64,000 bases of DNA, taken from assembly GCA_964470105.1 (NCBI GenBank), contig CAYXZI010000002.1:8644-72643 (forward strand). Direction: 5' to 3'. The position numbers and the translations under genes were made by a program. The stretch comes from an uncultured Candidatus Saccharibacteria bacterium (GTDB lineage: Bacteria; Patescibacteriota; Minisyncoccia; Phycocordibacterales; PALSA-1337). The notes beneath the pieces are model-generated. The model worked only from the letters and a program-made list of their open reading frames with translations. It was not told the DNA's origin and searched no databases. Shown here piece after piece: positions 1 through 63,109 of the stretch. Numbering within the stretch: position 1 is the first letter of the stretch; every line of letters begins with the position of its first letter.

Positions 1-1820
1 TTTAGATCAGAAGTACTCCACTTAACTCCTGTTAGAGCAGTTCTGTACTGTCCTGATGTACCCTGAGCACCTAGAGGAACTGAAACTGATAGTGTGAATG
101 TTTCTGATTCACCCTCTTCAATCATATAGTTACCTGTAGCTGTCAAAGTTGTGTCAGTGTTATTTACAAGAGCACCTGTAATTGTGTTAGATGTAGTAGC
201 TGTTCCACTCTTATCAACTGCATAAGTTAGACCTGCTGAAGTTGCTAGAGAAGAAACATAGATAGTATCACCTACCGCTGTTACCTTGTACTTGATTGTG
301 AATAGACCAACATCGTCATTTGAACTTGTACCTGTTGTAGCATCAGTAGCTGTTGAAACTAGAGATAGCTTGATTCCGTTTGTTCGGAATTCCTGAGCTT
401 CTCCAGTAGCTGTACCTGATCTCTCAGATGTTGTGTTCAATTGATCTCCTTCCTCGTTCTCAACATCAATATTGTCTCTGTTTGTTGATGTCAAAGATGC
501 TGCAAGAGTGTTACCCTCAGAGAATCCTGTGTCGATATCATTGATATCAGCTAGGACTGTGAATGTGTATGTCTTACCAGCACTTAGAGTCAAGTTAAGA
601 TTGTTGAATGTTGTTGTAGCTGAAGCAGCACTTGTGCTTACAGACTCTGTAAACTCCTTTCCATCAATCTTAAGCTTTAGAGAACCAGTAACTGCATCTA
701 CGTCAGAAGCACCTGTAACTGTAAGTGTAATTGGAAGTTCATCAACCAATAGGTCTGATGTACCTTCTACCTTGATCTTACCAACCAAGAGTGTAACATC
801 GTCTGTATTGTCTGTGTCATCAACTACTACTATACCAGCGTCTGGTCTTGAAGAATCTGTAGAAATCTTCAACTCTGTGTTTGAAGCAGATGAGAAGCTT
901 ACGAAATCAACAGGAACATTGAATGTATCACCGCCGAAGTCTGCTTCGTCAAGTGTTGTAACAACACCTGATCCATCCTCAAATCTGATATTGTCGATAT
1001 CAACTGACCATGAGTCAGAATCTATATCTCCAGAATCGAAATGATTTACTGCATCAACAGAAACATAGAACTTCTCTGTCTGATCTGCCTTAACGACTAC
1101 TCCACTACTTAGTGTAATTGTCTTTGTGTAGATATCAGAGCTGTTTCCCTTACTGAAGTCTCCAGCATCAGCTGAACCAATCTTCTTGTCTCCCATCCAT
1201 ACTGAGACTGAGTCGATATAGTCATCTAGATGATCTGAATCACTTGAGCTGTTTCCTGCTGGATCGAATGCAACCTTAACTGACTTCAACATAACGTCAC
1301 CGTCGTTTGAAGCTTCTACCTCAAATCCAACAACCTTTACATCGCTTTCGTTCTCGCCGATTTCTTCGTTATTGTATTGTGATAGCTCGTTAACATTGTC
1401 GATGTTTCCATCAGTACCCATTAGACCTGTTGATCCAACTACTGCTGCAGGCTTTGTTCCTGCAATTGGCTCACACTTGAATCCAACTGGACAATTAACT
1501 GCTACTGGTGTTGAAGGAGCACTTGTTCCGTTCAATACACCTCTTGTCAATGGACCTACGAATCCTGTGTTTGGAAGTCCTACACTAGCTTGGTAAAGCT
1601 TTACTGCTGCTTGTGTCTGAGAACCAAAGTAACCTGGCTGTGCTGCTCCTGAACTAATTGAAGGAATAGCAAAACCCTTACTAATCAACCATGACTGAAG
1701 AGCAGATACATCTGCACCAGTACTACCTACTGTAAGGTTAGTATTGAATGCTGCATTTGCTGTTGCACCTACAGCTACTATTGCCAAAGCAACGATAGCT
1801 ATTTTTAAAGATCTTTTCAT
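1..1820 (-). CDS. Large secreted surface protein, C-terminus truncated by the window edge. It has an N-terminal signal peptide, a PG_binding_1-like domain, and a long Ser/Thr/Asp-rich beta-repeat region.
   Basis: Hand translation of the minus strand from the ATG at 1818-1820 gives MKRSLKIAIVALAIVAVGATANA... with no stop codon down to position 1. The motif DVSALQSWLISKGF...GYFGSQTQAAVKLYQASVGLP matches a peptidoglycan-binding domain. It is not in the ORF track because it runs off the edge. Confidence 0.6.
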   Translation of the reverse strand, partial: MKRSLKIAIVALAIVAVGATANAAFNTNLTVGSTGADVSALQSWLISKGFAIPSISSGAAQPGYFGSQTQAAVKLYQASVGLPNTGFVGPLTRGVLNGTSAPSTPVAVNCPVGFKCEPIAGTKPAAVVGSTGLMGTDGNIDNVNELSQYNNEEIGENESDVKVVGFEVEASNDGDVMLKSVKVAFDPAGNSSSDSDHLDDYIDSVSVWMGDKKIGSADAGDFSKGNSSDIYTKTITLSSGVVVKADQTEKFYVSVDAVNHFDSGDIDSDSWSVDIDNIRFEDGSGVVTTLDEADFGGDTFNVPVDFVSFSSASNTELKISTDSSRPDAGIVVVDDTDNTDDVTLLVGKIKVEGTSDLLVDELPITLTVTGASDVDAVTGSLKLKIDGKEFTESVSTSAASATTTFNNLNLTLSAGKTYTFTVLADINDIDTGFSEGNTLAASLTSTNRDNIDVENEEGDQLNTTSERSGTATGEAQEFRTNGIKLSLVSTATDATTGTSSNDDVGLFTIKYKVTAVGDTIYVSSLATSAGLTYAVDKSGTATTSNTITGALVNNTDTTLTATGNYMIEEGESETFTLSVSVPLGAQGTSGQYRTALTGVKWSTSDL

Positions 1821-2208
1821 AATAATATTTATAATTTTAAATATCTTCTTCTCGGTTATTAATAATTTTGAGAGAAAACATTTAACAAACTGAACTAATA
1901 AACTTAACTGATAAACTATTCACCATTTCCCCCTCTTTTGTATTCGACACAAAAAAGGAAGATGAGGCTATAAGGATTCGAGACTGATTTCAACTTTTTA
2001 CTAACCGTATAGGAAAAAAGAGTGTCAGAAAATAACTTGTTTTAATCAGGGGTATTATATTGTCAAAGACCGTTGCAGACTATTATATCTTGTACGGCTG
2101 AGAATCTGCAAACTATATGTGGATAACTGGGGCTAAATTGACCCAGTACCAACAAGAGCATACTACACAAAATAGCTCCAAAAGTCAACAAAAATACCCG
2201 CCCCGTAT

Positions 2209-2880
2209 CTAAGTATTTAGTGAGTACGTACTCCATCTTCTTTCCCCAACTCTTTTTACGACACCACTTTTAACAAGTGCAATTAATTCTCTCTGGATTG
2301 TCTTTTCACTACAGTCCTTTATCACACTAGTGAAGTCCTTTATAGTTAGATTTGAACTCTGCTTTAATAGCGCCATAATTCTATCTTTTCTTATTAACTG
2401 TTTATCAGCCGATGTTTTTGTGGTAGACAAGTATTGTGTCTGAATTGTGTTATTTTCAAGCCTACCATCGAGTCCAGTTATGTCCTGTCCTTTATTGTCT
2501 TTTATATCACTATCTGTTGCAAAGAAACTTTCAGAGAGGATGTAGCCAGGAAGACCTGCTTCGCTATTATCTTTCAGTAATAATTTAGTTTGAGTTTCTA
2601 ATTCACTAATGATGATTGAGGCATTAACACCTGATATCAGGGAAATATTTGCACAAATATTCAGCAACGAAACCACCTTAAGAGAAGATATTTTTAAAAG
2701 ACTTTTTGCATGATTTTGTTCAACAGAATAAGCAGAGTCAATAAGCATTACACTTGATATCAGTGCAACGCCTTCCTCTCTAATTTCCCACTTCATAGTA
2801 TCACTGTCTTTTATGTGATTAGTGACCAAATATAGTGCAGAAACGATTTTTTGAAATTTCTGAATTATTGTCTTTTCCAT
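2209..2880 (-). CDS. Hypothetical protein with a C-terminal winged-helix/HTH-like segment
   Basis: 223 aa ORF. The C-terminus LTIKDFTSVIKDCSEKTIQRELIALVKSGVVKRVGERRWSTY resembles a wHTH DNA-binding domain. No other recognisable motif. Confidence 0.35.
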   Translation of the reverse strand: MEKTIIQKFQKIVSALYLVTNHIKDSDTMKWEIREEGVALISSVMLIDSAYSVEQNHAKSLLKISSLKVVSLLNICANISLISGVNASIIISELETQTKLLLKDNSEAGLPGYILSESFFATDSDIKDNKGQDITGLDGRLENNTIQTQYLSTTKTSADKQLIRKDRIMALLKQSSNLTIKDFTSVIKDCSEKTIQRELIALVKSGVVKRVGERRWSTYSLNT

Positions 2881-3055
2881 TGTCTTTTTGAGACCTTTTT
2901 AATGTCCCTTAACTGTCTTTTATTGAAAAAAATTATTGTCCATTATTTGTCTATTATATAAAGGACGTGGCTTAATTGCAAAGTTTATTGATGGTTATGA
3001 CACGCTATAAATATAATAACAATAGTGTGATATGATTATTGTATAAAAAAATATT

Positions 3056-5266
3056 ATGGCAACTAGAAAAAAGATTAAGGATGATGTAAAAAAACAGAAG
3101 GAGGTTGTTGTCGGTAAAGAAACGATGCAGGCAGTCTACGCAATAATTTTCTTTTTGATTGCACTACTATTCGTACTTGCCCCCTTTCATTTAGCAGATC
3201 CATTTGGTCAATATGCATATGAATTTCTTCGTACATGGTTTGGTCTGGGATATTTCCTACTTCCTATCTCTTTCATAATGATTGCCATTTCCTTTCTTAA
3301 AGGTATCGAGGCTGAATTTAAAATCTCAAAGTTTCTTGGTGTAGCATTATTCTTTCTATCAGGACTCGGTTTAATGCGTCTATTAGCAGATGAGGGTGGG
3401 CATGTAGGTAGGTGGATAACTCTACCCTTTATTAAGTTTTTTGGTGTCTATGCGACCCCCCTAATACTCATTGCTGGCATTGCTATATCTATACTTATAA
3501 CATTCGAAATTCATTTTACAGTTGATCACCTAAAATTCTGGAAATGGTTTAGTACAGATGATGAATCTGAGGATGAGGAAGTTGCTTCGGAAACACAAAT
3601 AGACAAAGCCGTCAGTGATGTTGAAAATAAGCTACAAAAGGAACAATTAAAGATAGCTGAGCAGAACCAAAATAAAGGAAAGGTGGAGAAAATACAGAAA
3701 GAAGAGGAAGGGGATATTAAGTTAGTGTCTGCATATAGTTTAAAACCTTTTGTTCCACCACCTCTTTCATTACTAGAAAAGGATCGTGGTAAGCCTGAAA
3801 CTGGAGATATCAAGGCAAATGCAAATATAATTAAGAGGACATTGGCTAATTTCGGTATAGATGTTGAAATGGATGAGATTTCTATTGGTCCATCAGTCAC
3901 TAGATACGCACTAAAACCCGCTGAAGGAGTGAAGCTTTCAAAGATAGTTGCGTTGAACAACGATCTTGCTCTAGCCTTGGCTGCGCATCCTATACGTATT
4001 GAGGCGCCAATACCCGGTAAATCACTTGTGGGTATTGAAATACCAAACACAACAAAGACAACTGTTGGTCTCGCTACTCTTCTAGGCTCAGAGGAGTATC
4101 AGAATTCAGAAAAACCACTATTAATTTCGCTTGGTAAGGGTATATCAGGAAAATCATATTTCTCAAATCTCGCCAAAGCTCCACACATGCTAATCGCTGG
4201 TGCAACCGGATCAGGTAAGTCAGTTACTATTCATGCAATTATTACCTCACTACTCTTCAGAAATTCACCTGAAAATCTTAAATTCATAATGATTGACCCG
4301 AAACGAGTAGAGTTAACTTTGTACAATAAAATTCCTCACCTCCTCACACCTGTTATAACTGATGCAAAGAAAGCGATCTTAGCGCTAAAATGGGCAGCGA
4401 AAGAAATGAGCAGGAGATACGATACGCTCGAGAAGTGTACTGTTCGTGATATTGATTCATACCACAAGACAGTTCTATCACCCGCTATCGAAAGACATAA
4501 GAAAAACAAGGATGAGGTTATGCCTGAAAGCATGCCGTATATCGTAATAGTATTAGATGAGTTGGCAGATATCATGCAGACATATCCACGTGAACTAGAG
4601 TCAGCAATAGTTAGACTAGCTCAAATGAGTCGTGCTGTTGGAATTCACCTTATCCTATCGACACAGAGACCGAGTGTTAATGTTATAACTGGATTAATCA
4701 AAGCAAATGTTCCGACAAGAGTTGCGCTACAAGTATCCGCACAGATTGATTCTCGAACCATACTTGATACTGGAGGAGCAGAAAAATTACTTGGTGCTGG
4801 AGATATGCTCTATCTTGGCGGTGAAATGTCTAAACCTCAAAGATTGCAGTCAGCTTACATAACTGAAACAGAAGTTAAAAAAGTTGTATCTCACCTAGCT
4901 GATACATATAAAGATGAAATAATGGGTGAAATTAATCTCGCTGTACCAGAAGCTGGCAAGGACTCAATTTTTGAATCTAGCTTTGATTCTGATAGTGCTG
5001 ATTTGGGTGATGAGGATGAACTACTAGGACAGGCGAGGGATATAGTAATCGAGAGCGGCAAAGCTTCTACATCTTGGCTGCAGAGAAAACTTGGTATTGG
5101 ATATTCTAGAGCAGCAAAATTAATTGATCTTCTAGAGTCAAAAGGTGTTGTTGGACCAGCTAATGGATCTAAAGCTCGTGAAGTGTACGGATCACAGGCT
5201 TCAGGTGGTGATACTACACCCTCCACCTCCCAACCAGAGACAATAACTGAAGGTAATGATCAATAG
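3056..5266 (+). CDS. ftsK: DNA translocase FtsK/SpoIIIE
   Basis: N-terminal transmembrane helices. Walker A GATGSGKSV, Walker B VIVLDELADIM, and a gamma-domain winged helix WLQRKLGIGYSRAAKLIDLLESKGVVGP. Confidence 0.95.
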   Translation: MATRKKIKDDVKKQKEVVVGKETMQAVYAIIFFLIALLFVLAPFHLADPFGQYAYEFLRTWFGLGYFLLPISFIMIAISFLKGIEAEFKISKFLGVALFFLSGLGLMRLLADEGGHVGRWITLPFIKFFGVYATPLILIAGIAISILITFEIHFTVDHLKFWKWFSTDDESEDEEVASETQIDKAVSDVENKLQKEQLKIAEQNQNKGKVEKIQKEEEGDIKLVSAYSLKPFVPPPLSLLEKDRGKPETGDIKANANIIKRTLANFGIDVEMDEISIGPSVTRYALKPAEGVKLSKIVALNNDLALALAAHPIRIEAPIPGKSLVGIEIPNTTKTTVGLATLLGSEEYQNSEKPLLISLGKGISGKSYFSNLAKAPHMLIAGATGSGKSVTIHAIITSLLFRNSPENLKFIMIDPKRVELTLYNKIPHLLTPVITDAKKAILALKWAAKEMSRRYDTLEKCTVRDIDSYHKTVLSPAIERHKKNKDEVMPESMPYIVIVLDELADIMQTYPRELESAIVRLAQMSRAVGIHLILSTQRPSVNVITGLIKANVPTRVALQVSAQIDSRTILDTGGAEKLLGAGDMLYLGGEMSKPQRLQSAYITETEVKKVVSHLADTYKDEIMGEINLAVPEAGKDSIFESSFDSDSADLGDEDELLGQARDIVIESGKASTSWLQRKLGIGYSRAAKLIDLLESKGVVGPANGSKAREVYGSQASGGDTTPSTSQPETITEGNDQ

Positions 5267-5606
5267 AGACGGAGTACAAAAAATTATAAAGATTAGTCTC
5301 TTTGTATTTATAATACTGGTTGTAACAATATACTCTGTTATCTCTTTCAAAGACTACGTGGATGGACCGCAAATTGAGGTGATGCAGCCGATTAATGGCA
5401 GCAGTATAGCTAGTTCTACCACCCTACTTAAGGGTCAAGTGAAGCGAATAAAGGACGTTAGCATAAACAATAGACCACTATTAATTGATACTCAAGGAAA
5501 CTTTACCTATAACCTACTTCTTTTAGATGGTTATAATATTTTTATAATTTCAGCAATTGATAAGTTTGGAAGAACTACTGAATACAAATTAGAACTTGTC
5601 CACTGA
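5256..5606 (+). CDS. Small membrane-anchored hypothetical protein
   Basis: 116 aa ORF that overlaps the ftsK stop by 11 nt. One N-terminal transmembrane helix followed by a beta-rich domain. Confidence 0.35.
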   Translation: MINRDGVQKIIKISLFVFIILVVTIYSVISFKDYVDGPQIEVMQPINGSSIASSTTLLKGQVKRIKDVSINNRPLLIDTQGNFTYNLLLLDGYNIFIISAIDKFGRTTEYKLELVH

Positions 5607-5672
5607 GATTATTATTGAAATATTGATATAATTCAGCGAGTACCCACTCATTATTACTTAATATACAACCGC

Positions 5673-6776
5673 ATGACAAAAAAGATAAAAAACATAAAAC
5701 AAAAAGAAGAAGAATTGGAGGAAAAAATAGAGGAAGTTGACGATGAAGGAGCTGTTAAAAACAAGAAACCGGCAAAAGAAAGTAAGAGTATAGATCCCAC
5801 CCTAAGCATTGGATCTACCCTTGATGCAATTAGATCAAAGTTTGGTGATGAGTCAATAATGAAGCTTGGAGATAAACCGAAGGTAAATGTTAATGCCATA
5901 CCAACTGGCTCTATAGGCCTTGATGCAGCACTAGGAATTGGTGGTATGCCTAGAGGTAGAATTGTTGAGATATTTGGACCAGAATCATCTGGTAAGACTA
6001 CCCTATCTCTTCATATAATCGCAGAGGCACAGAAGATTGGTGGTATTTGTGCATTCATAGATGCAGAGCATGCTATGGATCCAGAATATGCAAAGAGACT
6101 AGGAGTTAAAACTGAGGAATTACTTATTTCTCAACCAGAATCAGGCGAACAAGCACTTGGAATCGTAGAGAGTTTAGTCCATTCAGGCAAGATGGATGTT
6201 ATTGTCATAGACTCTGTCGCAGCACTAACACCAAAAGATGAAATTGAAGGTGATATGGGTGCACACCATGTAGGTAAACAGGCTCGACTTATGTCGCAAG
6301 CACTTCGAAAACTTACTAGTATAGTAGCGAAGTCAAAAACAATAGTTATATTCATAAACCAGATACGTATGCAGATCGGAGTTATGTTTGGTAATCCAGA
6401 GACCACTCCAGGTGGAAAGGCTCTTAAGTTCTACACCTCTGTTCGTCTAGATATACGTCGTATAGCTCAGATTAAAAAGGGTGAAGAGATTATGGGAGGA
6501 CGCGTAAGAGTGAAGGTTGTAAAGAATAAGGTCGCTGCCCCATTCCGCCAGACAGAGTTTGATCTTATGTATAACGAAGGTATATCACAGGAGGGAGAAA
6601 TCATAGCGCTAGGTGAAAAAATGAATATAATATCAAAATCAGGTACATCATATGCATATGGTGATGTTAAGCTTGGTCGAGGATATGATGCTACACGCCA
6701 ATTCCTAAAAGAGAATGTACCAATCAGAACAGAGATACTAGCCAAGATACGTACTCAACTTGCAGAAGTAAAATAA
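5673..6776 (+). CDS. recA: Recombinase RecA
   Basis: [39 protein letters not shown], the L1/L2 loops and [22 protein letters not shown] are all textbook RecA. Confidence 0.97.
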
Positions 6777-8140: not shown

Positions 8141-8632
8141 TTACGCCTCTTTGACCATAGCATCAATACTTTTATCCATATCCTCAACTGAAGCAATTAC
8201 TGGCTCACCTGCTAATTCTACACCTGGTTCGACTGGTACGTCTGCAAGAACTTCAGATACAAGTACAGGAGATTTCTTTCCCAAGTATGTATTCTCTCTT
8301 ATAGTTGTTATAAGAAGCATACGAAGCATATTTGGATTTTCTTCAAACAACTTCTTTATACCCTCAATCTCCTTTGCTGGAAGCTCAAACTTAAACCAAC
8401 CAAAATAACCTTTATCGAATCGGTGATTAGTAGGACCAATCTTTTTGACCATGGTATATGCCAAAGTCCTCAATTCTGGTGCCTCTTCGCCTATAAAATC
8501 TGCTCCTTTCTTAGAAAGGATTTCCCTTAGAGTAGTTACTTCTGAAGCAACTTTCTCCTCTGGAATTGAAGATACGAGCATGTATCCTATTTCATATACC
8601 TGCATCTTCTCTTCTTTCATATTTTTCTCCAT
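8141..8632 (-). CDS. rpsF: 30S ribosomal protein S6 with a C-terminal extension
   Basis: MQVYEIGYMLVSS...RTLAYTMVKKIGP...GYFGWFKFELPAKEI matches the S6 fold. The rpsF-ssb-rpsR gene order is conserved. Confidence 0.85.
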   Translation of the reverse strand: MEKNMKEEKMQVYEIGYMLVSSIPEEKVASEVTTLREILSKKGADFIGEEAPELRTLAYTMVKKIGPTNHRFDKGYFGWFKFELPAKEIEGIKKLFEENPNMLRMLLITTIRENTYLGKKSPVLVSEVLADVPVEPGVELAGEPVIASVEDMDKSIDAMVKEA

Positions 8633-23325: not shown

Positions 23326-24057
23326 TTGCACATTGAAAATCAAGTAATACAATTAGGAATGGATGGTTCAATTTTCGAAATTATGAGCTCGAGAAAAAAG
23401 AGGGTGAGTGAATTGGACCGAATCCTCAAATTCGTTCAGTTTACAATATCCTTTCAACAGATCCAGAGGATGGTTCGGGCAACGGGCGAACATCGGTGGG
23501 AGAATGACGCTGAACACTCCTATCAATTAGCAATCGTTGCTTGGTACATCATTAACAGCAAAAACCTGTCTTTAGATTTGGGCAAAGTGCTGAAATATGC
23601 CATTGTCCACGATCTTCCGGAACTATTTGCTGGTGATGCGTGTGCTTTCATTGACAGCGCCGCGGTGATGGATGGTAAACATGCAAGAGAGATGGCTGCT
23701 ATCCAGAAACTCCGGGCTGAACTCCCTGAGTTTTCAGAACTTCACGAAGCCCTGCTCAAGTATGAAAGTAGAACTGATCCTGAGGCGAAGTTTGTTTACG
23801 CCCTAGACAAGGTACTTCCCATGTACGTCATTCTTCTTGACGAAGGAAAAACCTGGAGACAGTTCAACACAGGGTTCGACACAATGCTTGGGGAGAAGGC
23901 AGGCAAAATACGCAAATGCCCCCATAGTTCAAAGCTGCTAGATTCAATCCTGGCAGAATTGAACGCACGGCAGGGTGAACTCTTTCCACCCAAGGCGCCA
24001 CCACTTGATACGGAAGATATCATTCGTGTGCCACAGCGAGTATTCGCTGCTGCATAA
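23326..24057 (+). CDS. HD-domain phosphohydrolase (YfbR-like 5'-deoxynucleotidase)
   Basis: ENDAEHSYQLAIVAW ... AIVHDLPELFAGD (HD motif). GC is about 46%, higher than the roughly 33-35% background. Confidence 0.65.
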   Translation: MHIENQVIQLGMDGSIFEIMSSRKKRVSELDRILKFVQFTISFQQIQRMVRATGEHRWENDAEHSYQLAIVAWYIINSKNLSLDLGKVLKYAIVHDLPELFAGDACAFIDSAAVMDGKHAREMAAIQKLRAELPEFSELHEALLKYESRTDPEAKFVYALDKVLPMYVILLDEGKTWRQFNTGFDTMLGEKAGKIRKCPHSSKLLDSILAELNARQGELFPPKAPPLDTEDIIRVPQRVFAAA

Positions 24058-26438: not shown

Positions 26439-27056
26439 TCAGGAACTCTTAGTTACAGGCGGTGCGAGTTTGTCGCGCACCAAGTCTTGCTCCTCCGGTG
26501 TGAGTTCGTCGAAGCCGGATTCAACCCCCATGGCTGCTTCTGCATGGCGCATCTTCTCGAAGATACGGAGGATTGGGAGTTTCTTCTCAAGATCCGCTTG
26601 GGACTTGGCAATGGTCACCTCCACACGGTCGATGCCAGTGGGAACCTGATAGTTGACATGGAGGTGTGGGACGCTCTTGGCATTTCGAGCGGGGTCGCCG
26701 GAGCGGACGACGTACACTCCACCCTTGATGTCGTAGGTGCAATCAATCCACTTAATTGCCTCAAGGAGATGGACTGCCTCCATACCTTGCAAATCCCCGA
26801 AACGCTCAACGTGGCACTTGCTTGGTATGATGAACTGGTAGTCTTGGCCAGATCGCGGAGCGACCTTGTTCATCCAGACTCTCCAGCTTGGGTTCTCGAA
26901 GAGAACCTCGTTGACCGTAGGATCGATGGTGCAGAATGGACAGACTCCATTTCGAAGATCCTCGACCTTCCTGCAGTAGTATTCGTAGTTGCTGACGTTG
27001 AATAGCTGCCAGATTTGATCATCTGGCACCCTCAAGACATGGAATTCTGGGTACAT
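26439..27056 (-). CDS. HIT-like protein with a variant triad, GC-rich
   Basis: CPFCT and PHLHVNY (H-x-H-x-N). About 55% GC against the ~33% background. Confidence 0.55.
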   Translation of the reverse strand: MYPEFHVLRVPDDQIWQLFNVSNYEYYCRKVEDLRNGVCPFCTIDPTVNEVLFENPSWRVWMNKVAPRSGQDYQFIIPSKCHVERFGDLQGMEAVHLLEAIKWIDCTYDIKGGVYVVRSGDPARNAKSVPHLHVNYQVPTGIDRVEVTIAKSQADLEKKLPILRIFEKMRHAEAAMGVESGFDELTPEEQDLVRDKLAPPVTKSS

Positions 27057-33495: not shown

Positions 33496-35265
33496 TTACT
33501 TGATCTCTGAACCGATCAAGGTTTTGAAGAACTCATTGGTTGCTGAGAGTTCATCGTATGTCCCCTCACCGACAACTTGTCCCTTATCGAGGACAATGAT
33601 CCGATTCGCTTTTTTCACCGTACCTAAACGGTGTGCGATGATGATACCAGTACGTCCACGGAGAGCATTCTCCATTGCGACGTACACCTCTGCCTCAGTC
33701 TTGTAGTCCAAGGCGCTTGTTGCTTCATCGAAGACAATGACACTTGGATCGCCGGCCAGAACTCTAGCTATAGCGATCCTTTGGCATTGACCTCCAGAGA
33801 GCTGCGCTCCGTTTTCACCAATCAAGGTACCGAGACCATCTTTTCCGAGTCTCGCCAAGAACTCTTCTATTCTAGAGTATCTTACCACTGCATCCAGATC
33901 TCCTGGAGCAAGGTCTCGGTCTGAGCCGAATAGGATGTTCTCGCGAACACTAGCGTCCCATAGCATCGTCTGCTGAGAGACAGTCCCTATCCTCCTTCGC
34001 CAAGAATTAATAGCTATCGTTTCGATAGGTAAATCATCGACACGAATAGTACCACTCTGTGGAGCATTTGCTCGCAGTATGAGTGAGACGATCGTACTTT
34101 TTCCACTACCAGACGGGCCAACAAATGCCACGGTCTCTCCAGGTTTTATGTGGAATGATACGTTATTTAGCGCATGTGGCTTGCCGGCCTCATACGCAAA
34201 TGATACATGATCAAAAACGATATCCCCTCTGGGGTTTTCGAGTTGGATCGCATCATCGTGATCAGCACACTCAGGTTCCTGTTCAATGAAGTCTCTTAGA
34301 CGCACGACATTGATACTAGACCTCATGATCTGACGCTGAATCGTACCTATGTTACTCAGGCACATATATACACCTCCGATGAGAGAGATGATAATTGCAA
34401 TGTCACCGGTGCTGATACTTCCACCCTTAACCAGGGTGAAGATCAGCAGAAGGATTGGTGCGTAGAGAAAATACTGAAATGGCATGTTTCTTAACAAACC
34501 AACAGCGATGTTGTATGCGCACCAAACTTTCTTCCCCTCACGAAAAGCCGTGTCTTGCCTTTGCAAGAAACTTCTAAGTGTCTTTTCATGTGCGGCCATG
34601 CTGATGACAAGTTTGAGATTCTTCACGATTTCCCAGAACTTTGTCTCAGTATCCGACTCTAACTTCCTAGCTTCTTTAACTCTGTCGACGTAGTAGTTGT
34701 TTGTGACAATACTCGCAACGGCGAAACAGATGGAAGCAGAAAGAATGCAAATCGCCACGATCCAATTGACATAGAACAAGAGACTAATCGAAATCAGTAT
34801 CCTTATGACAGTTGGAATGACATGCTCGAAGATTAGACTCATGAGATCAGTGACCGCTGATGAACCCTTCTGCAGAGTATCCATCTTTAGTCCTGTATTT
34901 TCACGAGTGATCTGACCCGGCGAAAGCTTAAATAGCTTGCCGAATGAATAGAGTCTTAAGTGCCCTTCCACATCAAAAGCTATATTGTTAATATGGAAGA
35001 CTGACTCTATAATGTGTCCGAGACAGATTAACACTGATATCACCGCAATCAGTACAGTAATGCCGCCAAGCGACATGAAGTCACTTGAACCGACTATGAT
35101 ATCAACCCCTCTTCCAACCAAGAACGACTGGCTGATCGACATCATCTGTATTGCGAGAATCATTAGGGTGTACAGGTAGTACCTCCGATGAAGTACGACT
35201 GTAATCTTCCAAACGTACGAGATAGCATCTAGTGCTATCTCCATACGGTTTTTCTTTTCTTTCAC
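33496..35265 (-). CDS. ABC exporter, fused TMD-NBD type (MsbA-like)
   Basis: Six predicted transmembrane helices. Walker A GPSGSGKST, signature LSGGQCQRIAIARVL, Walker B VIVFDEATSALD. GC is about 48%. Confidence 0.9.
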   Translation of the reverse strand: MKEKKNRMEIALDAISYVWKITVVLHRRYYLYTLMILAIQMMSISQSFLVGRGVDIIVGSSDFMSLGGITVLIAVISVLICLGHIIESVFHINNIAFDVEGHLRLYSFGKLFKLSPGQITRENTGLKMDTLQKGSSAVTDLMSLIFEHVIPTVIRILISISLLFYVNWIVAICILSASICFAVASIVTNNYYVDRVKEARKLESDTETKFWEIVKNLKLVISMAAHEKTLRSFLQRQDTAFREGKKVWCAYNIAVGLLRNMPFQYFLYAPILLLIFTLVKGGSISTGDIAIIISLIGGVYMCLSNIGTIQRQIMRSSINVVRLRDFIEQEPECADHDDAIQLENPRGDIVFDHVSFAYEAGKPHALNNVSFHIKPGETVAFVGPSGSGKSTIVSLILRANAPQSGTIRVDDLPIETIAINSWRRRIGTVSQQTMLWDASVRENILFGSDRDLAPGDLDAVVRYSRIEEFLARLGKDGLGTLIGENGAQLSGGQCQRIAIARVLAGDPSVIVFDEATSALDYKTEAEVYVAMENALRGRTGIIIAHRLGTVKKANRIIVLDKGQVVGEGTYDELSATNEFFKTLIGSEIK

Positions 35266-37862: not shown

Positions 37863-39485
37863 TTATATTATATCAAAGAAAGACATGAATTTTGCTGGAT
37901 CGATTGAAATGCCGCCAATCTTAATACTTAAATGAAGATGTGCTGCATCAGCATAACCTGTCCTACCACTTAAACCTATTATATCTCCAGTTTTAACAGT
38001 ATCCCCCTCTTTTACTTTTAACTCTGATAGGTGCATATATAAAGTACTCAATCCAAGACCATGATCTATAATTACCGTATTACCATATACGGTATATAGT
38101 CTAGAGACTCTGATAATGCCATCATTCATAGCCATAACTGGAGTACCGATTGAAGCTCTGAAGTCTGTTCCTTTATGAGCTATTAAAAAACCGACAGTAT
38201 CTCTATTGTAGCCATAATCATCTGTTACAAATATTGATTCTAATGGCTTACCAAAAGCGTCAGTCCATAAACTGGTAGTTGCAGTTTTTATATTGTTGAT
38301 ACTTGCATTTTCTTTAGTCAGATTATCGACAAGAGTCTTTCCAGCTTCTTTGGTATTACCTCCGAGTTTCTCTGGAATACCTAATGGCTTTTCAATTTTC
38401 TCACGTGGGGTTAACGTTAACGGTTCATTAATAACCATGCCATTATTCAGGGTTACTTTTATTGAATGTTCCATTTTTGTCTCCTCAAATGGAATGGCAA
38501 TGAAAGCAACTTTCTTGCCTTTATATGTAAGCGTTTGAATCTGTTTGGTGTCATACATAACACTTGATATTGTAGAGCTGGCACTAATGGTAACCATTAC
38601 TGGATCACCTGGATATACATTCTTAGGTTTTATATTTACAACTGGAGCTACAACATTATTTTCTATCACCACCTTAGTATTAGGAATGACCTTATTCGGC
38701 ATTGAAAGTGATATAAGAATTATTATTGCAATTAGTATTCTATAGTATCCAAAGGCGGTAAGAGATATCTTATTCAAATGTTTCTTTAGAAAAAGAATCA
38801 CTAGAAATGCTACGAGAAGTGAGACTACAAATCCTAAAATTAGACCGTCCCAGGAATGCAATTTTAGTAAAATGTCCTTTGACTTATATGCATCATATAT
38901 CACCGCTGCACCTAGTGTTGGTAATGCTAGTAGAAATGTATATTCAATAATTGTAGATTTCTTTATCTTCCTTAAGATACCGGCAATAATTGTTGCACCT
39001 GATCTCGATACTCCAGGAACAATAGCGATAGCTTGTGCAATACCTATTACAAATGCATCAAGCATTGAGATTTCTTCTTTACCAAACTTTTCTAGATCCC
39101 TACCTACTATCTTCCGCATAAATACTTTTTCTAAATATATAAATATTATTCCACCTATTGCCATAGTTATAGCTATTAGGATCATATTCCCTTCCAATAG
39201 CTGTTTGAATAGTTTATAAAATATAAAACCGATAATAGCACTTGGAATGAAACTAATGCATAGATTTATAAAAATCTTTCTATCAGAGAAGATTTTTTTT
39301 ATGTATATAATCAAACCCGCAGACAAGGCGCCAAACTGGATGAAGAGTATGTAGAACTTTATGTATGCATCAGTCGTATCTACGTGCAAAAATTTAGATA
39401 GCAAGATGAGGTGAGCAGTTGATGAAACTGGCAGAAATTCAGTAAAACCCTCTAGTGCAGATAGAATTATTAAGTATATATTCAT
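37863..39485 (-). CDS. uppP: Undecaprenyl-diphosphatase (UppP/BacA) fused to a C-terminal M23 (LytM) peptidase domain
   Basis: The N-terminus has EGFTEFLPVSSTAHL and PGVSRSGATIIAGIL (BacA motifs). The C-terminus has HKGTDFRA...GNTVIIDHG...YMHLS...GRTGYADAAHLH (M23 HxxxD/HxH motifs). Confidence 0.85.
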   Translation of the reverse strand: MNIYLIILSALEGFTEFLPVSSTAHLILLSKFLHVDTTDAYIKFYILFIQFGALSAGLIIYIKKIFSDRKIFINLCISFIPSAIIGFIFYKLFKQLLEGNMILIAITMAIGGIIFIYLEKVFMRKIVGRDLEKFGKEEISMLDAFVIGIAQAIAIVPGVSRSGATIIAGILRKIKKSTIIEYTFLLALPTLGAAVIYDAYKSKDILLKLHSWDGLILGFVVSLLVAFLVILFLKKHLNKISLTAFGYYRILIAIIILISLSMPNKVIPNTKVVIENNVVAPVVNIKPKNVYPGDPVMVTISASSTISSVMYDTKQIQTLTYKGKKVAFIAIPFEETKMEHSIKVTLNNGMVINEPLTLTPREKIEKPLGIPEKLGGNTKEAGKTLVDNLTKENASINNIKTATTSLWTDAFGKPLESIFVTDDYGYNRDTVGFLIAHKGTDFRASIGTPVMAMNDGIIRVSRLYTVYGNTVIIDHGLGLSTLYMHLSELKVKEGDTVKTGDIIGLSGRTGYADAAHLHLSIKIGGISIDPAKFMSFFDII

Positions 39486-39871
39486 TTATATATAATATCT
39501 TGAATCTTCAAGGAAAGATATCCGAGTATTCCCAATTGGAGTGTTGGTGTTAGACCGATACCCAATATTGGAATAATTGGCATGTATTCATTGTATGCCC
39601 ATCTACCTGTAGATAAAGCAGCCCACTCTATACTAATAGCAACAATGAGACCAATAATAGTGATCATCCAGTACTTATCCTTAAACCATGGTAGGAAAAG
39701 AAATGGTAAGTAGAAAATTGTAATCATCACTGCATCACCAAGTGTTGCGCGTAAAAGTATGAATTCTGTTATCTTCCCTCCCATATAGTGAGAGTACAAT
39801 AGGGAGTGAATATTCTCCCATATGAAATTTAGTATAAAAGAAACTACAAATACAATAGTGATTCTTTTCAT
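39482..39871 (-). CDS. Hypothetical membrane protein
   Basis: 129 aa with 4 predicted transmembrane helices. Confidence 0.35.
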   Translation of the reverse strand: MKRITIVFVVSFILNFIWENIHSLLYSHYMGGKITEFILLRATLGDAVMITIFYLPFLFLPWFKDKYWMITIIGLIVAISIEWAALSTGRWAYNEYMPIIPILGIGLTPTLQLGILGYLSLKIQDIIYK

Positions 39872-40339
39872 TTATCCCTGCTTACCGTTATATACCACTA
39901 TCTCAGTATGAGTCTCTTCTGCTTCATCTTTTCCGTGTCTTAGGTGAAAATCATAGTGTGGGTTTGAGATTATAGCCAAACTTATCGAAGTACATAGAAT
40001 ACACACGTTTCGAAATATGATATTCATAGTATGAAAATCCGTAATAAATATACCGAACATTAATCCTGCTGCAGCAATACTTGGTAGAAAAATCTTTTTA
40101 CCGGATAGCAGCCATAGACCAATAACTAACTCTGCCCCACCCCAAGTTATGAGAAGAATGTCATCAATTTTCCAATCTCTCATAAAATCTGGAAAATATG
40201 CTAGCCACGGTATTGGATTAATAAAAGCAGAAATGGAGGCGTAGAGAAATACAAAAGCTACTCCAAATCTTAATAGAAACCACACTATTTTAATTTGTCT
40301 TGGTGTCATGTTTTGATCCATACAAGTATTATACACCAA
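39872..40339 (-). CDS. DoxX-like membrane protein
   Basis: LLRFGVAFVFLYASISAFINP... matches the DoxX pattern. Confidence 0.5.
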   Translation of the reverse strand: MVYNTCMDQNMTPRQIKIVWFLLRFGVAFVFLYASISAFINPIPWLAYFPDFMRDWKIDDILLITWGGAELVIGLWLLSGKKIFLPSIAAAGLMFGIFITDFHTMNIIFRNVCILCTSISLAIISNPHYDFHLRHGKDEAEETHTEIVVYNGKQG

Positions 40340-40416
40340 ATGGGTTTAGGGGATAAAAAAAACAATCCCCGGTGTGAGCCGAGGACTTGAAATCAAAACT
40401 TTGAGGGGTGTGTGAA

Positions 40417-40827
40417 TCACTCCTTAATGGTCAGAGAAATCTCTTGACCAAAATCCTCAGGAGGAAGGACTGAACGGATCCAGAGTCCTCGTTCTGTTGA
40501 AGTGGCTTCTGCCATAAATAGAGAGAAGATGAATTCCAGCGGGATGTCTGGTACAGCAGGCCCAGATGATGTTGGTTGTAGCGATAACAGCGTAACTCTT
40601 ATCGCACCTCCTGAAAGTGGAATATACTCCACCATATTTATCACCCCGGAGTATTCAATACCCTGGAATGTGAATCTGGCGGTACCGCCCGACAACCTCT
40701 GAATATCCTCCAAGTTGTCGAATCTCAGTGGTTGTATCTGTCTCTTTCTGCCGAGCAGTTTGATGAGGAGGACGCCGACAGGCAGGATGACGAGGAGGAT
40801 CAGAATAACAATTGCAGATGTCTTCAT
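40417..40827 (-). CDS. Hypothetical membrane-anchored protein within a GC-rich island
   Basis: 136 aa with an N-terminal transmembrane helix. About 50% GC. Confidence 0.4.
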   Translation of the reverse strand: MKTSAIVILILLVILPVGVLLIKLLGRKRQIQPLRFDNLEDIQRLSGGTARFTFQGIEYSGVINMVEYIPLSGGAIRVTLLSLQPTSSGPAVPDIPLEFIFSLFMAEATSTERGLWIRSVLPPEDFGQEISLTIKE

Positions 40828-40975
40828 GTTTTGGTGAGTTGGTTGTGCTTGGTTTACCCAGACTTCAAGTTATATTATTCTATGGAAAAGTCAATTTAAT
40901 ATTTTTAACATAAAAGGCAGACCGCAGATGTTACTCTGCGGTTGTTTGAATTCGATTTCGAAATAGGTGCTGGTC

Positions 40976-41629
40976 CTATACAGCCCCTTGTACCAAGATA
41001 AGATCCGATGAAGCAGATGAGACCGCTGTTCCCGTGTTCCAGGTACGAAGTATCTCACTCAGCCAGTCTTGTCCATGCGCAGTCTGCGACTGGAAGAACA
41101 CACCTGTATCCAGATTATTATGGGATGCTGCGTAAAAACGCAAATAATAGCCAGACTTGTAGTTTTCTTTGATGTACTCCCTGATCTCAGGTAGACACAG
41201 AATGAGTTGGCTGGGATCGGCCATGTTGAGCCCATAACGCGCCATGACTTGACGGAAAACTGAGAGTTTACTACCGCGCGCCACACGGAAAAGTGTGTAG
41301 TGTCCGGCACAGGAGTATTGGACTGGAAGTGCCTTAAGAACTGAATCGCGTTTACCTATGTCACCGATCTCATCGCCGACCGGTACCGTATTTACGAGAT
41401 CGAGAAGCTGGTTTGCTCCTTTGGGTGCAACTTCAATCGTTGCCACTCGCACGAATAGGCTTCTGACCATCAATTTTGCAACCTCATCGGCCAACCTCTC
41501 CTCTGAGAGCAGACGGAGCAAGTCGTCATCGGCTTCACCACCAGCATCCTGAATTGCCTCCGCGAGTCTTTGGATGATTTGCAGATTTTTGTCACCCTGC
41601 CTAACAAGGACTGATTTGAGTTTCTTCAC
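40976..41629 (-). CDS. Hypothetical protein within a GC-rich island
   Basis: 217 aa with no recognisable motif. About 50% GC. Confidence 0.4.
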   Translation of the reverse strand: MKKLKSVLVRQGDKNLQIIQRLAEAIQDAGGEADDDLLRLLSEERLADEVAKLMVRSLFVRVATIEVAPKGANQLLDLVNTVPVGDEIGDIGKRDSVLKALPVQYSCAGHYTLFRVARGSKLSVFRQVMARYGLNMADPSQLILCLPEIREYIKENYKSGYYLRFYAASHNNLDTGVFFQSQTAHGQDWLSEILRTWNTGTAVSSASSDLILVQGAV

Positions 41630-41731
41630 AATGAACCTTTTGTTTCATGGCCTACCCACACTGAATTTGTATCAGTAAAGCCTACCATGTTCAAATAATA
41701 CAATACTTTGTTTATACTGAAATGTCAACTC

Positions 41732-41806
41732 TGGGTGGCTATCGGGAGTCGAACCCGAACTAAGAGTTCCACAAACTCTGGTGCTAACCGCTACACCATA
41801 GCCACC
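41732..41806 (-). tRNA. tRNA-His (anticodon GUG) with an encoded G-1
   Basis: Hand-folded cloverleaf. G-1 pairs with the discriminator C73. Anticodon loop UUGUGGA. T-arm UCGGG-UUCGACU-CCCGA. Confidence 0.85.
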
Positions 41807-41888
41807 ATAAACTAACTTTATCTTTATACCAGATTTAGCACTTTATAGCCAATCACAAGCATCCACAATACTTGCCTGAAATGCTATA

Positions 41889-42737
41889 ATGTATGTCATG
41901 AAAATCGGTTTTATCGGACAAGGCTGGATCGGAAAACACTATGCTGATGACTTTGAAAACAGAGGTTATGATGTTGTTAGGTATTCTAAAGAACCTCAGT
42001 ATGAGATGAATAGGGATAAAATTGGTCTGTGTAAGATAGTATTTATAGCTGTCCCTACTCCTACCACTCCTAAGGGATACGATTCAAGTATAATCGAAAA
42101 GGTTGTGTCACTTGTATCTCCAAAGTCTATTGCAGTAATTAAATCCACCATACTACCTGGAGTAGCAAGACGTATACAGAAAAAATATCCTGACAGAATA
42201 GTTATGCATTCACCAGAATTTCTGAGTGAAGCAACGGCAGCAAAAGATGCTAAGGAGCCTTTTATGAATATTGTTGGTATTGATACCAAATCAAATCAAC
42301 ATAAGATTGCTGCTAAATTGGTTCACTCTGTACTGCCTAAAGCTCCACATAGCAAAACTATATCTTACGAAGAAGCTGAACTAATTAAATATGCACATAA
42401 TTGTAGTGGATATACCCAAATAATTTTCTTTAATTTAATATATGATGCTGCTAAAAAAGTTGGTGCAAATTGGAGTGAAATTGAGCCGATTCTGAAAGCC
42501 GACCCTCTTATACCTAATAGATATGCATCACCAATACATAAAAGTGGAAGAGGTGCTGGAGGTAATTGTTTTATAAAAGACTTTGAAGCTTTTAGAAACT
42601 TTTACGACAAGACTGTAAAAGATTCACTTGGAAGCAAGGTTCTAGCATCAATGAAAAGCAAGAATATTGATCTATTGGTTAAATCTAAAAAAGATATTGA
42701 TCTATTAAAAGGAGTTTACGGTAAGAAGATTAAATAG
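41889..42737 (+). CDS. UDP-glucose/GDP-mannose dehydrogenase-family protein lacking the C-terminal nucleotide-sugar-binding domain
   Basis: GFIGQGWIGKHYA (Rossmann fold), FIAVPTPT, SPEFLSEATAAKD, AELIKYAHN and the catalytic-Cys region GGNCFIKD. It is only 282 aa. Confidence 0.55.
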   Translation: MYVMKIGFIGQGWIGKHYADDFENRGYDVVRYSKEPQYEMNRDKIGLCKIVFIAVPTPTTPKGYDSSIIEKVVSLVSPKSIAVIKSTILPGVARRIQKKYPDRIVMHSPEFLSEATAAKDAKEPFMNIVGIDTKSNQHKIAAKLVHSVLPKAPHSKTISYEEAELIKYAHNCSGYTQIIFFNLIYDAAKKVGANWSEIEPILKADPLIPNRYASPIHKSGRGAGGNCFIKDFEAFRNFYDKTVKDSLGSKVLASMKSKNIDLLVKSKKDIDLLKGVYGKKIK

Positions 42738-43056
42738 TTATCCTATCAATCTTTGCTGCAACGATGAAATCATTCTCTGTTAGACCACCAACTTCATGGG
42801 TCATGATCTCAATATCGACTTTATTGTAGTATATATGAATATCAGGATGATGCCCCTCTCCTTCTGCTATATCTGCTACTTTATTAACAAAAACCATCGA
42901 TTCTTTAAAATCCTTAAACTGGAAATTTCTTGATATCTTCTTATCTTCCATCACTTTCCATTTTGTAAGATCTTTAGAGAAGATAGCTATAGATTTAGCA
43001 TCCACTGGCGTTCCACCAACTTCACAAGGTATACATTTTTTATTTGAAAGGTCCAT
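42730..43056 (-). CDS. Pterin-4a-carbinolamine dehydratase
   Basis: The EGHHPDI signature. Confidence 0.85.
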   Translation of the reverse strand: MDLSNKKCIPCEVGGTPVDAKSIAIFSKDLTKWKVMEDKKISRNFQFKDFKESMVFVNKVADIAEGEGHHPDIHIYYNKVDIEIMTHEVGGLTENDFIVAAKIDRITI

Positions 43057-43060
43057 ATAT

Positions 43061-43930
43061 TTATTTTTTTGAAATTATTATTGGGTAAGAGTATCTAATT
43101 AGAACTCTTCCTTCACCAGTATCTATAATACCCAGATATTCCTTACCATATTTATTACTGTATTCATCAATTAATCCGTATGCCTTTTGAAGATAGATAC
43201 TCTTTCGGTCTTCGATTTTATTCAAATCATTCTGATTATTATTTTTAAGTACCTTTTGGACTATATCAGAATTAAACCTATCCCACTGCTCCTCTGGTGA
43301 CCACTCATTTGATTTGGTATATCCTACATGAGTAATTTCTTTAAAGCCTACTTCTTTTAGAATTTGAAAATAGTCATCTTCACAAATCCAATGATAATTT
43401 CCAGATCCTGCGCGACCCAGTTCTGGTATATTAGAAATAGCAGAACGCAAATCACAATTTTCTTTGTTTCCTGAACTATTTTGGTGGACTAAATGACCAT
43501 TAGTTTTTAAGGAATTGAGAATATTTTTCAAAATTAACCTTTGGTCTTTAGGGGCATTATAGTGAAGAACTGCTCTCATGGTAACCAAGTCAAGATTCGA
43601 AAAAGAAACTTCTTCCAAATTACATAGTTGAATTTCTAACCCTTTTTCTTCTGAATCTTTCAGATAATCTTCGTTTGCATCTACTACAACTGTTCTAATT
43701 TTACGTCCTGAATTTTCTAAATACTTTTTTACGCCTACAGCTAGATGACCTTGCCCTCCACCAAAATCAACATATGTCATTTCCATTGGAAAATGATTGA
43801 ATATGGGTTGTATACCGAGCTCAATAAACCTTGCTATGTTTTTAGGGTCTGAAAAATAACCCTTATACACCTTAGAAATGTCGACCCTTGCCATCTTGTC
43901 TGCATTTGTTCCGATAGACTTTATATCCAT
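43061..43930 (-). CDS. Class I SAM-dependent methyltransferase
   Basis: VDFGGGQGHLAVGV (motif I). Confidence 0.6.
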   Translation of the reverse strand: MDIKSIGTNADKMARVDISKVYKGYFSDPKNIARFIELGIQPIFNHFPMEMTYVDFGGGQGHLAVGVKKYLENSGRKIRTVVVDANEDYLKDSEEKGLEIQLCNLEEVSFSNLDLVTMRAVLHYNAPKDQRLILKNILNSLKTNGHLVHQNSSGNKENCDLRSAISNIPELGRAGSGNYHWICEDDYFQILKEVGFKEITHVGYTKSNEWSPEEQWDRFNSDIVQKVLKNNNQNDLNKIEDRKSIYLQKAYGLIDEYSNKYGKEYLGIIDTGEGRVLIRYSYPIIISKK

Positions 43931-62842: not shown

Positions 62843-63109
62843 CTACTCACCCTTCACCCGATGAAGGGTAATGGTGATGTTGGGTGTTGTTGTTTTCATC
62901 GCCTTTATTACCCTATATACAACTTCATTGTTGACGATCACTGCATCGCGAGAGTGCATGCACACCACCAGTGCAACAATACCGTAACCCTCTGGGACGT
63001 GCGGGAGGTTGTCTGGTAATCTAGATGCGCAAATTACATTGTCTGAATTGCAAACGCTTGGCTCAAGATGAGTTGCCATACCAAATGGTCTAACTCCAAT
63101 TTTCATCAT
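62843..63109 (-). CDS. Hypothetical 88-aa protein
   Basis: An ORF with moderately raised GC and no motif recognised. Confidence 0.3.
   Translation of the reverse strand: MMKIGVRPFGMATHLEPSVCNSDNVICASRLPDNLPHVPEGYGIVALVVCMHSRDAVIVNNEVVYRVIKAMKTTTPNITITLHRVKGE

Follow-up and report, generated by a model that had tools for sequence, protein, structure and literature searches.

Must two GC-rich genes that lie side by side next to a tRNA, in a genome otherwise poor in guanine and cytosine (GC), represent a single island that entered at the tRNA? The question is raised by a short segment of a 64-kb stretch of DNA from an uncultured member of the Patescibacteriota (contig CAYXZI010000002.1, positions 8,644 to 72,643; hereafter the window, with coordinates counted from its first nucleotide). 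Directly 3' of a tRNA-His gene with anticodon GTG, the minus strand carries an open reading frame (ORF) of 217 amino acids (aa) at 40976-41629 (p217) and then one of 136 aa at 40417-40827 (p136); the 3' end of the tRNA points towards lower coordinates, i.e. towards both ORFs. A first-pass annotation had described the two genes as candidate horizontally acquired cargo in the classic geometry of tRNA integration. Its observation is confirmed and its interpretation is partly supported. We consider it probable, with moderate confidence, that the segment is a small flexible-genome islet at a variable hotspot, and that it consists of two independent single-gene cassettes acquired at different times.

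Composition and integrity of the segment

Composition was measured over the whole window, using GC content in 300-nt windows and in sliding 1.4-kb windows, and GC content at third codon positions (GC3) for 72 ORFs. The segment from 40340 to 41732 has a GC content of 0.459 and is the top 1.4-kb peak within the window (sliding windows: mean 0.365, standard deviation 0.029, maximum 0.464). In 300-nt windows, GC climbs to 0.46-0.52 over 40350-41700, compared with 0.33-0.36 on both sides. The excess noted in the first-pass annotation is therefore real, although the background, at 0.365 for the whole window, is slightly above the roughly 33% given there. The coding GC of the two ORFs is 0.474 and 0.494, and their GC3 is 0.49 (p136) and 0.50 (p217), against a median of 0.28. 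Since these GC3 values are far above the median, amino-acid composition does not account for the excess; the check on codon usage and windowed GC that had been proposed thus comes out as anticipated. The excess is restricted to coding sequence: GC is 0.365 in the intergenic spacer and 0.33 in the leader and region upstream of the p217 gene.

The source is a metagenome-assembled genome (MAG) and the change in composition is abrupt, so GC-rich foreign DNA might have been joined to a low-GC contig during assembly or binning. However, the same two gene products were called independently on Logan contigs, and the junctions on both sides of the islet are present in four separately assembled Logan contigs from different sequencing runs, which makes an assembly chimera unlikely; contig L001 reaches from a UDP-glucose-dehydrogenase-like gene to a VKOR gene. 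Moreover, the GC shift tracks the boundaries of the coding sequences, with low-GC promoters in between, and the orthologous p136 junction occurs again in two related contigs, L005 and L038. We regard the probability of a chimera as close to negligible.

A variable interval between conserved flanks

Relatives were sought by scanning species-representative genomes with the UDP-glucose-dehydrogenase-like gene that adjoins tRNA-His. The matches are Patescibacteria MAGs of the Paceibacteria/Zambryskibacteria type, to which the organism of the window is accordingly assigned, and only one of them, L005, is close, with 98% amino-acid identity in the UDP-glucose-dehydrogenase-like protein. On the other side of the islet, the DoxX-family proteins of the window and L005 share 97% identity, and the flanking DNA is 82-92% identical. 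Three blocks align by blastn: window 39127-40362 (BacA-M23 fusion, 129-aa gene and DoxX-family gene) with L005 53-1288 (82%), window 40357-40916 (p136 gene with its terminator and promoter) with L005 6499-7052 (83%), and window 41898-43070 with L005 10001-11173 (92%).

The interval from the DoxX-family gene to the tRNA-His/dehydrogenase pair measures 1.55 kb in the window and 8.7 kb in L005, and apart from p136 its content differs. Between its DoxX and p136 genes, L005 has an insert (1331-6200; 5.2 kb, ~50% GC) that is missing from the window. This insert encodes a P-loop kinase, an ABC-F ATPase, a phosphorylase resembling methylthioadenosine phosphorylase (MTAP), a radical S-adenosylmethionine (SAM)/SPASM enzyme and an adjacent 71-aa ORF; as judged by these predicted products, it resembles a peptide-modification cluster of the kind that makes ribosomally synthesised and post-translationally modified peptides (RiPPs). 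At the position of p217, L005 has a gene for a 209-aa membrane protein and a low-GC methyltransferase gene. Directly 5' of tRNA-His, before the dehydrogenase-like gene, it has two low-GC paralogues encoding HNH-endonuclease-like proteins (166 and 167 aa). Such different cargo between flanking proteins that are 97-98% identical indicates a variable hotspot. Beyond L005 synteny is lost, with the other ~30 loci sharing only the UDP-glucose-dehydrogenase-like gene. The comparison with related genomes suggested by the first-pass annotation, which expected relatives lacking the island, gives a divided answer: L005 lacks p217 but keeps p136, and no empty site, i.e. a relative in which the islet is wholly missing, was found, p136 being present in both L005 and L038.

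p136 was inherited together with its flanks

Homologues of p136 were found in three related Paceibacteria assemblies: the L005 orthologue, P0003 (79% identity; contig L038, where the gene again lies beside a DoxX gene) and P0004 (56%; contigs L039 and L040). In L005 the gene occupies the same DoxX/tRNA-His interval and has the same elevated GC3. The first-pass annotation had reasoned that both genes would be ancestral if relatives carried them in the same context with similar GC; in the L005 interval this is seen for p136 only, p217 being absent there. Between the window and L005, synonymous divergence (dS) is 0.365 for p136, compared with 0.57 for the DoxX-family gene and 0.40 for the dehydrogenase-like gene. 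Because p136 has a dS like that of the flanking core genes, we conclude that it has been co-inherited with them since the two genomes diverged. The ratio of nonsynonymous to synonymous divergence (dN/dS) is 0.385 for p136 and 0.02-0.03 for the flanking genes; p136 thus appears to be a fast-evolving gene under weak purifying selection.

The features of the segment, all but one assigned to the minus strand, are as follows, with the source of each assignment in brackets:

41733-41805, minus strand: tRNA-His, anticodon GTG (ARAGORN; Rfam RF00005, 58.6 bits); T-arm canonical, unlike that of the L005 copy
41700-41728, minus strand: promoter-like site of the p217 gene, TTGACA, 17 nt, TATTGT (consensus scan, 10/12 matches)
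41646-41689, minus strand: conserved 44-nt leader with a predicted structure (comparison with contig L041, folding)
40976-41629, minus strand: p217 gene, GTG start, AAAGG Shine-Dalgarno sequence (ORF)
40920-40943, no strand assigned: intergenic hairpin, terminator-like on both strands (terminator scan on both strands)
40857-40897, minus strand: p136 promoter and 5' untranslated region block (four-way alignment)
40417-40827, minus strand: p136 gene (ORF, homologues)
40356-40387, minus strand: p136 intrinsic terminator, 9-bp stem at 40364-40387 followed by U8 at 40356-40363 (terminator scan)

The block upstream of p136, AATTGAC(T/A)...TATAA(C/G)TTGA(A/G)GTCT, is almost invariant among the window, L005, L038 and the divergent L039. 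The strong terminator at the distal end, which the first-pass annotation had also pointed out, is kept in L005 and L038, its stem differing by a U-G to C-G change, and L039 has another hairpin at the same position. The conserved promoter block and terminator position indicate that p136 is a self-contained transcription unit. Its upstream neighbour is not constant: the p217 gene in the window, the gene for the 209-aa membrane protein in L005, and a gene for an NlpC/P60-like protein in L039.

Neither p136 nor p217 has a match in Pfam, PHROGs, NCBIfam, PADLOC or PDB sequences, in agreement with the earlier statement that both lack recognisable motifs. An AlphaFold model of p136, built on a three-sequence alignment (predicted local distance difference test score, pLDDT, 72.7), has an N-terminal transmembrane helix at residues 2-25 followed by six beta strands. 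Foldseek returned nothing for this model at E <= 0.001 in PDB or BFVD; sliding-clamp and Sm-like folds were considered and rejected, with TM scores of 0.15-0.3. All three homologues have four or five Lys/Arg residues right after the transmembrane helix and a single Lys before it. Positively charged residues flank a transmembrane helix on its cytoplasmic side (the positive-inside rule), and by this rule the charges suggest that the C-terminal beta domain of p136 faces the cytoplasm. The membrane anchor proposed for one of the two proteins is therefore supported, whereas the domain that had been assumed to be extracytoplasmic would lie on the opposite side of the membrane.

p217 is specific to this genome

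The distribution of p217 is very different from that of p136. Every contig with p217 comes from the same genome, and L005 lacks the gene. In a word-indexed database of 5.8 billion protein sequences, p217 matched only itself, and an exhaustive HMMER search of 1.84 billion representatives returned one true homologue, P0005 (229 aa, 39% identity, E 2e-26). Two further candidates, P0006 and P0007, were rejected on reading the sequences, as tandem-repeat artefacts. A two-sequence profile search added no further member, and separate scans with the N-terminal 71 residues gave nothing usable. P0005 is encoded on L041, a 24-kb contig of 52-62% GC (host ~57% GC), where it lies ~0.8 kb downstream of a tRNA-Trp gene in the same orientation, among core-looking neighbours (tryptophanyl-tRNA synthetase, TrpRS, and an ABC exporter). 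GC3 is 0.76 for P0005, 0.50 for p217 and 0.28 for the host of p217; this series fits a GC-richer donor whose gene has since been partly ameliorated, or a donor intermediate in GC. Since p217 is absent from the closest related genome, we suggest that it is strain-specific and plausibly horizontally acquired. Horizontal acquisition, which had been proposed for both genes, is accordingly supported for p217 by its absence from the closest relative and its foreign-looking composition, but not for p136 at the same date, that gene being ancestral to this genome group.

No transmembrane segment was found in p217, and its AlphaFold model (pLDDT 38) was unusable. Residues 1-31 are identical to those of P0005 at 26/31 positions (84%), compared with ~31% for the remainder of the protein. 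Only six of 25 identical residues in the N-terminal segment use the same codon, indicating that its conservation acts on the protein. Upstream of the gene, the -35 and -10 boxes (TTGACA/TATTGT) align with TTGACG/TATTTT upstream of the L041 homologue, and downstream the hairpin at 40920-40943 closes the p217 transcription unit; L005 has a different hairpin at this location.

Could p136 and p217 nonetheless form one functional pair, such as a toxin-antitoxin, defence or membrane-signalling system, that was acquired as a unit? They are adjacent, on the same strand and similar in GC3 (0.49 and 0.50), and one is membrane-anchored while the other is soluble. However, they are separated by a terminator-like hairpin and by the conserved promoter of p136, there is no PADLOC match, and the genes do not co-occur elsewhere: p136 is beside other genes in L005 and L039, as described above, and the p217 homologue on L041 has no p136-like neighbour. 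The missing co-occurrence largely refutes a two-gene system, which we consider highly improbable, and the same observations speak against the single two-gene island of the first-pass annotation.

A model for the origin of the islet

We propose a hotspot bounded on one side by the DoxX-family gene and on the other by the pair of tRNA-His and UDP-glucose-dehydrogenase-like gene, both boundaries being conserved. The p136 cassette, with its own promoter block and terminator, would predate the divergence of this genome from the three related assemblies, and would since then have been inherited vertically while evolving quickly. By contrast, p217 would be a recent strain-specific gain, slotted in directly 3' of tRNA-His, that came from a GC-richer lineage as a full expression unit with promoter, structured 5' leader, Shine-Dalgarno sequence and GTG start. 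Turnover of the cargo most likely occurs by recombination that is independent of a resident integrase; the cargo might be exchanged homologously by way of the conserved flanks once DNA has been taken up, or be inserted illegitimately. As a working guess, p217 would serve as an accessory protein in the cytosol, with the conserved leader controlling its expression, and its N-terminal 31 residues might bind the leader and so mediate autoregulation. The islet is a clean example of how adjacent GC-rich genes can differ greatly in age.

Four points weigh against this account. First, L005 is the sole close relative in which the interval is covered from end to end, so that the hotspot is known from two full-length states and two short contigs. 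Second, the hotspot reading comes from genome comparison, and the recombination mechanism is a presumed one. Third, each of the two p217 family members follows a tRNA gene of like orientation (tRNA-His for p217, tRNA-Trp for P0005 on L041), a shared position hinting that the gene could have moved by a tRNA-linked mechanism whose integrase and attachment (att) site were lost later. Fourth, p136 has a GC3 of 0.44-0.49 in all four genomes, even in comparison with L039, for which synonymous sites are saturated (proportion of synonymous differences, pS, 0.8); a GC3 maintained in this way is not predicted by old acquisition followed by simple amelioration. The third and fourth points each have an alternative explanation attached to them.

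The third would be explained by a classic tRNA-targeting island, inserted by a site-specific recombinase at the 3' end of tRNA-His, of which the integrase and the distal att repeat have decayed. As the first-pass annotation stated, the segment abuts the 3' end of the tRNA, in the same orientation; indeed, the p217 promoter begins only 4 nt past it (41728 vs 41733). The atypical composition would also be expected, and the contig of the next relative, L006 (71%), ends exactly at tRNA-His. Nonetheless, we detected none of the traces of such an event. A direct repeat of the tRNA-His 3' segment, which had been anticipated near 40.35 kb, was searched for in 39800-42000 and none was found; 19-nt and 15-nt probes from the tRNA 3' end, with three mismatches allowed, had no match in the whole window other than the tRNA. 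Nor did p136, p217 or the Pfam-annotated neighbours on the window contigs L001-L004, L005 and L041 show an integrase or recombinase domain, a check that covers neighbours with Pfam annotation and so does not extend to a 188-aa product on L001 that has no Pfam entry. Searches with p136 and p217 gave no match in phages and plasmids (tblastn) and no relative among IMG/VR viral contigs. The distribution of GC-rich DNA also argues against tRNA targeting: p136, the distal gene, is vertically inherited and has a native-looking low-GC promoter; the GC-rich insert of L005, around which no flanking repeats were found, sits between the DoxX gene and p136 rather than next to the tRNA, while the tRNA-adjoining gene in L005 is low in GC; and two further GC-rich genes, at 26.4-27.1 kb and 33.5-35.3 kb of the window, have no tRNA gene beside them. 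Hence, a GC-rich gene beside a tRNA does not by itself imply att-site integration. We consider a decayed tRNA island unlikely, and att-site integration a less likely route than integrase-independent recombination; the integration geometry on which the first-pass annotation relied is there, but no signature of the mechanism was found with it.

The fourth point would be accounted for if the high GC were native and under selection, for example for mRNA structure or codon choice, with nothing transferred; the GC3 of the p136 orthologues, including that from the saturated L039, looks maintained rather than decaying. This explanation is refuted for p217 by the distribution of that gene, which is missing from the closest relative and has its sole homologue in an organism of 57% GC. 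It is further at odds with the 5.2 kb of ~50% GC cargo that L005 has and the window lacks, and with the GC3 of both kinds of gene, which is far outside the host range. As an explanation of the islet as a whole we find it quite improbable, and we retain the reading of two single-gene cassettes of different age at a hotspot of turnover.

The tRNA itself differs between the two genomes. The L005 tRNA-His (8541-8613, minus strand) is only ~70% identical to the window copy (41733-41805, minus strand), despite the 82-92% identity of the flanking DNA. It has an aberrant T-arm, with the loop AGCAUAA instead of UUCGA, and a D-loop without GG. The L005 tRNA-His may have been replaced or may be decaying.

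A putative structured leader upstream of p217

The similarity between the window and L041 extends upstream of the coding sequence. The -35 and -10 boxes, a 44-nt block, the Shine-Dalgarno sequence and the start (CATTGTG) are collinear, with diverged spacers in between. The 44-nt leader (window 41646-41689, minus strand; L041 9941-9984, plus strand) has a predicted fold with an outer 5-bp stem, internal loops that carry (G)GUAGGC on either side, and within them a 5-bp hairpin that closes the loop UACAAAU. Its 38-nt core, GGTAGGCTTTACTGATACAAATTCAGTGTGGGTAGGCC (41649-41686, minus strand), is identical to L041 at 34/38 positions and is unique in the window. Folding the window and L041 leaders independently gave the same two helices. 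The outer stem is CAUGG/CCAUG in the window and UGCGG/CCGCG in L041; the inner hairpin is ACUGA-UACAAAU-UCAGU in the window and CCUGA-UACAACU-UCAGG in L041. All ten pairs are kept between the two sequences, with three double compensatory changes and one change to a wobble pair; seven of the nine substitutions fall in stems, and 22 of the 24 unpaired nucleotides are identical. A simple Monte Carlo null that placed nine substitutions at random preserved every pair and gave three or more double changes in 12 of 300000 trials.

We searched for known or additional instances of the leader. Rfam gave no non-tRNA match at gathering score in the whole window, and with an E-value threshold over 41560-41760 it gave only four matches, far below gathering scores (E 0.036-5.2). 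The motif had no match in viral contigs, plasmids or phages. A pattern scan of metagenome contigs yielded nine leader-like matches, none of them before a p217-like gene and none with the CUGA/UCAG hairpin, and these were taken as chance. Four of the nine (L043 123-160, L046 1330-1367, L048 996-1033 and L049 1896-1932) come from one study and share one repeated sequence, GGTAGGCC-UAAAGC-loop(UACAAAU)-GCUUU-GGUAGGCC. This sequence has a leader-like layout, with direct repeats around a hairpin with a similar loop, and lies in DNA without convincing ORFs; it is probably a chance match or an unrelated repeat.

The leader could act as a DNA operator, because it starts at about the predicted transcription start and two GGTAGGC direct repeats, 30 bp apart, flank a palindrome. 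Given the covariation, we prefer to read it as an RNA or hairpin rather than as a DNA operator. No terminator or Shine-Dalgarno-sequestering expression platform is evident in the leader. It is conceivable, and we put this forward only tentatively from the sequence comparison, that the leader belongs to a hitherto undescribed class of structured cis-regulatory RNA and moves between phylogenetically distant hosts together with the p217 family. The N-terminal 31 residues of p217 may recognise it, in which case the cassette would be portable and autoregulatory; alternatively, the leader may have a small ligand as its partner, like an orphan riboswitch. If the leader is a true regulatory RNA, it is a new motif on a nearly unique protein family, known from two copies that permit no generalisation. 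The leader, together with the conserved N-terminal peptide, is the only potentially new feature of the islet.

Comparison with known systems

Genomic islands associated with tRNA genes are integrated by tyrosine recombinases, and tools such as Islander catalogue this class. The islet shares with them an atypical GC content, hypothetical cargo, and a position directly downstream of a tRNA 3' end in the same orientation. Unlike them, it has no integrase that we could find and no tRNA 3' repeat; only ~0.8 kb, the p217 cassette, is strain-specific, and the distal gene is vertically inherited. A second parallel comes from the comparative genomics of horizontal gene transfer (HGT) hotspots, namely integrase-free chromosomal sites of gene turnover between core genes. 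Conserved flanks, cargo that differs between close relatives, atypical composition and a lack of recognisable mobile-element genes are common to these sites and to the islet. In contrast to documented hotspots, the islet is known from two full-length states plus fragments, in an uncultivated lineage of the candidate phyla radiation (CPR).

As an island, the islet is ordinary: integrase-free flexible patches with ORFans have already been reported in Patescibacteria. Hundreds of genomic islands have been described in this group, most transfers being between Patescibacteria, and in groundwater Patescibacteria up to 13% of genome length was attributed to HGT (PMC12455944). The setting of those islands is similar, with streamlined CPR genomes that contain both islands and individually transferred genes; however, they were predicted computationally, with an emphasis on restriction-modification and translation genes (PMC12455944), whereas the genes described here are ORFans, one of them with a conserved and putatively structured leader.

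The leader has its own precedents. Small cis-regulatory RNAs in 5' leaders include orphan riboswitch candidates and protein-binding autoregulatory leaders such as those of ribosomal-protein genes. The p217 leader is like these in its placement between promoter and Shine-Dalgarno sequence, in its covarying stems and near-invariant loops, and in its occurrence in hosts of very different GC, here 36% and 57%. It differs from known examples in having no Rfam match, two instances and no evident expression platform.

Other features of the window

Four other genes in the window are GC3 outliers: 23326-24057 (plus strand), an HD_3-domain protein (0.46); 26439-27056 (minus strand), a 205-aa protein with no Pfam match (0.65); 33496-35265 (minus strand), an ABC exporter (0.48); and 62843-63109 (minus strand), an 88-aa ORF (0.46). 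None of the four adjoins a tRNA gene, and foreign-looking single genes are scattered across the genome. Equating the ABC exporter with the ABC-F ATPase of the L005 insert was considered and rejected, since the two are similar only in the ATPase domain, at 28% identity. Farther from the tRNA than the DoxX-family gene, positions 37863-39485 (minus strand) encode a 540-aa fusion of BacA (undecaprenyl-diphosphatase) and an M23 peptidase, an unusual cell-envelope combination; the fusion gene is followed by DsbA-like and VKOR genes.

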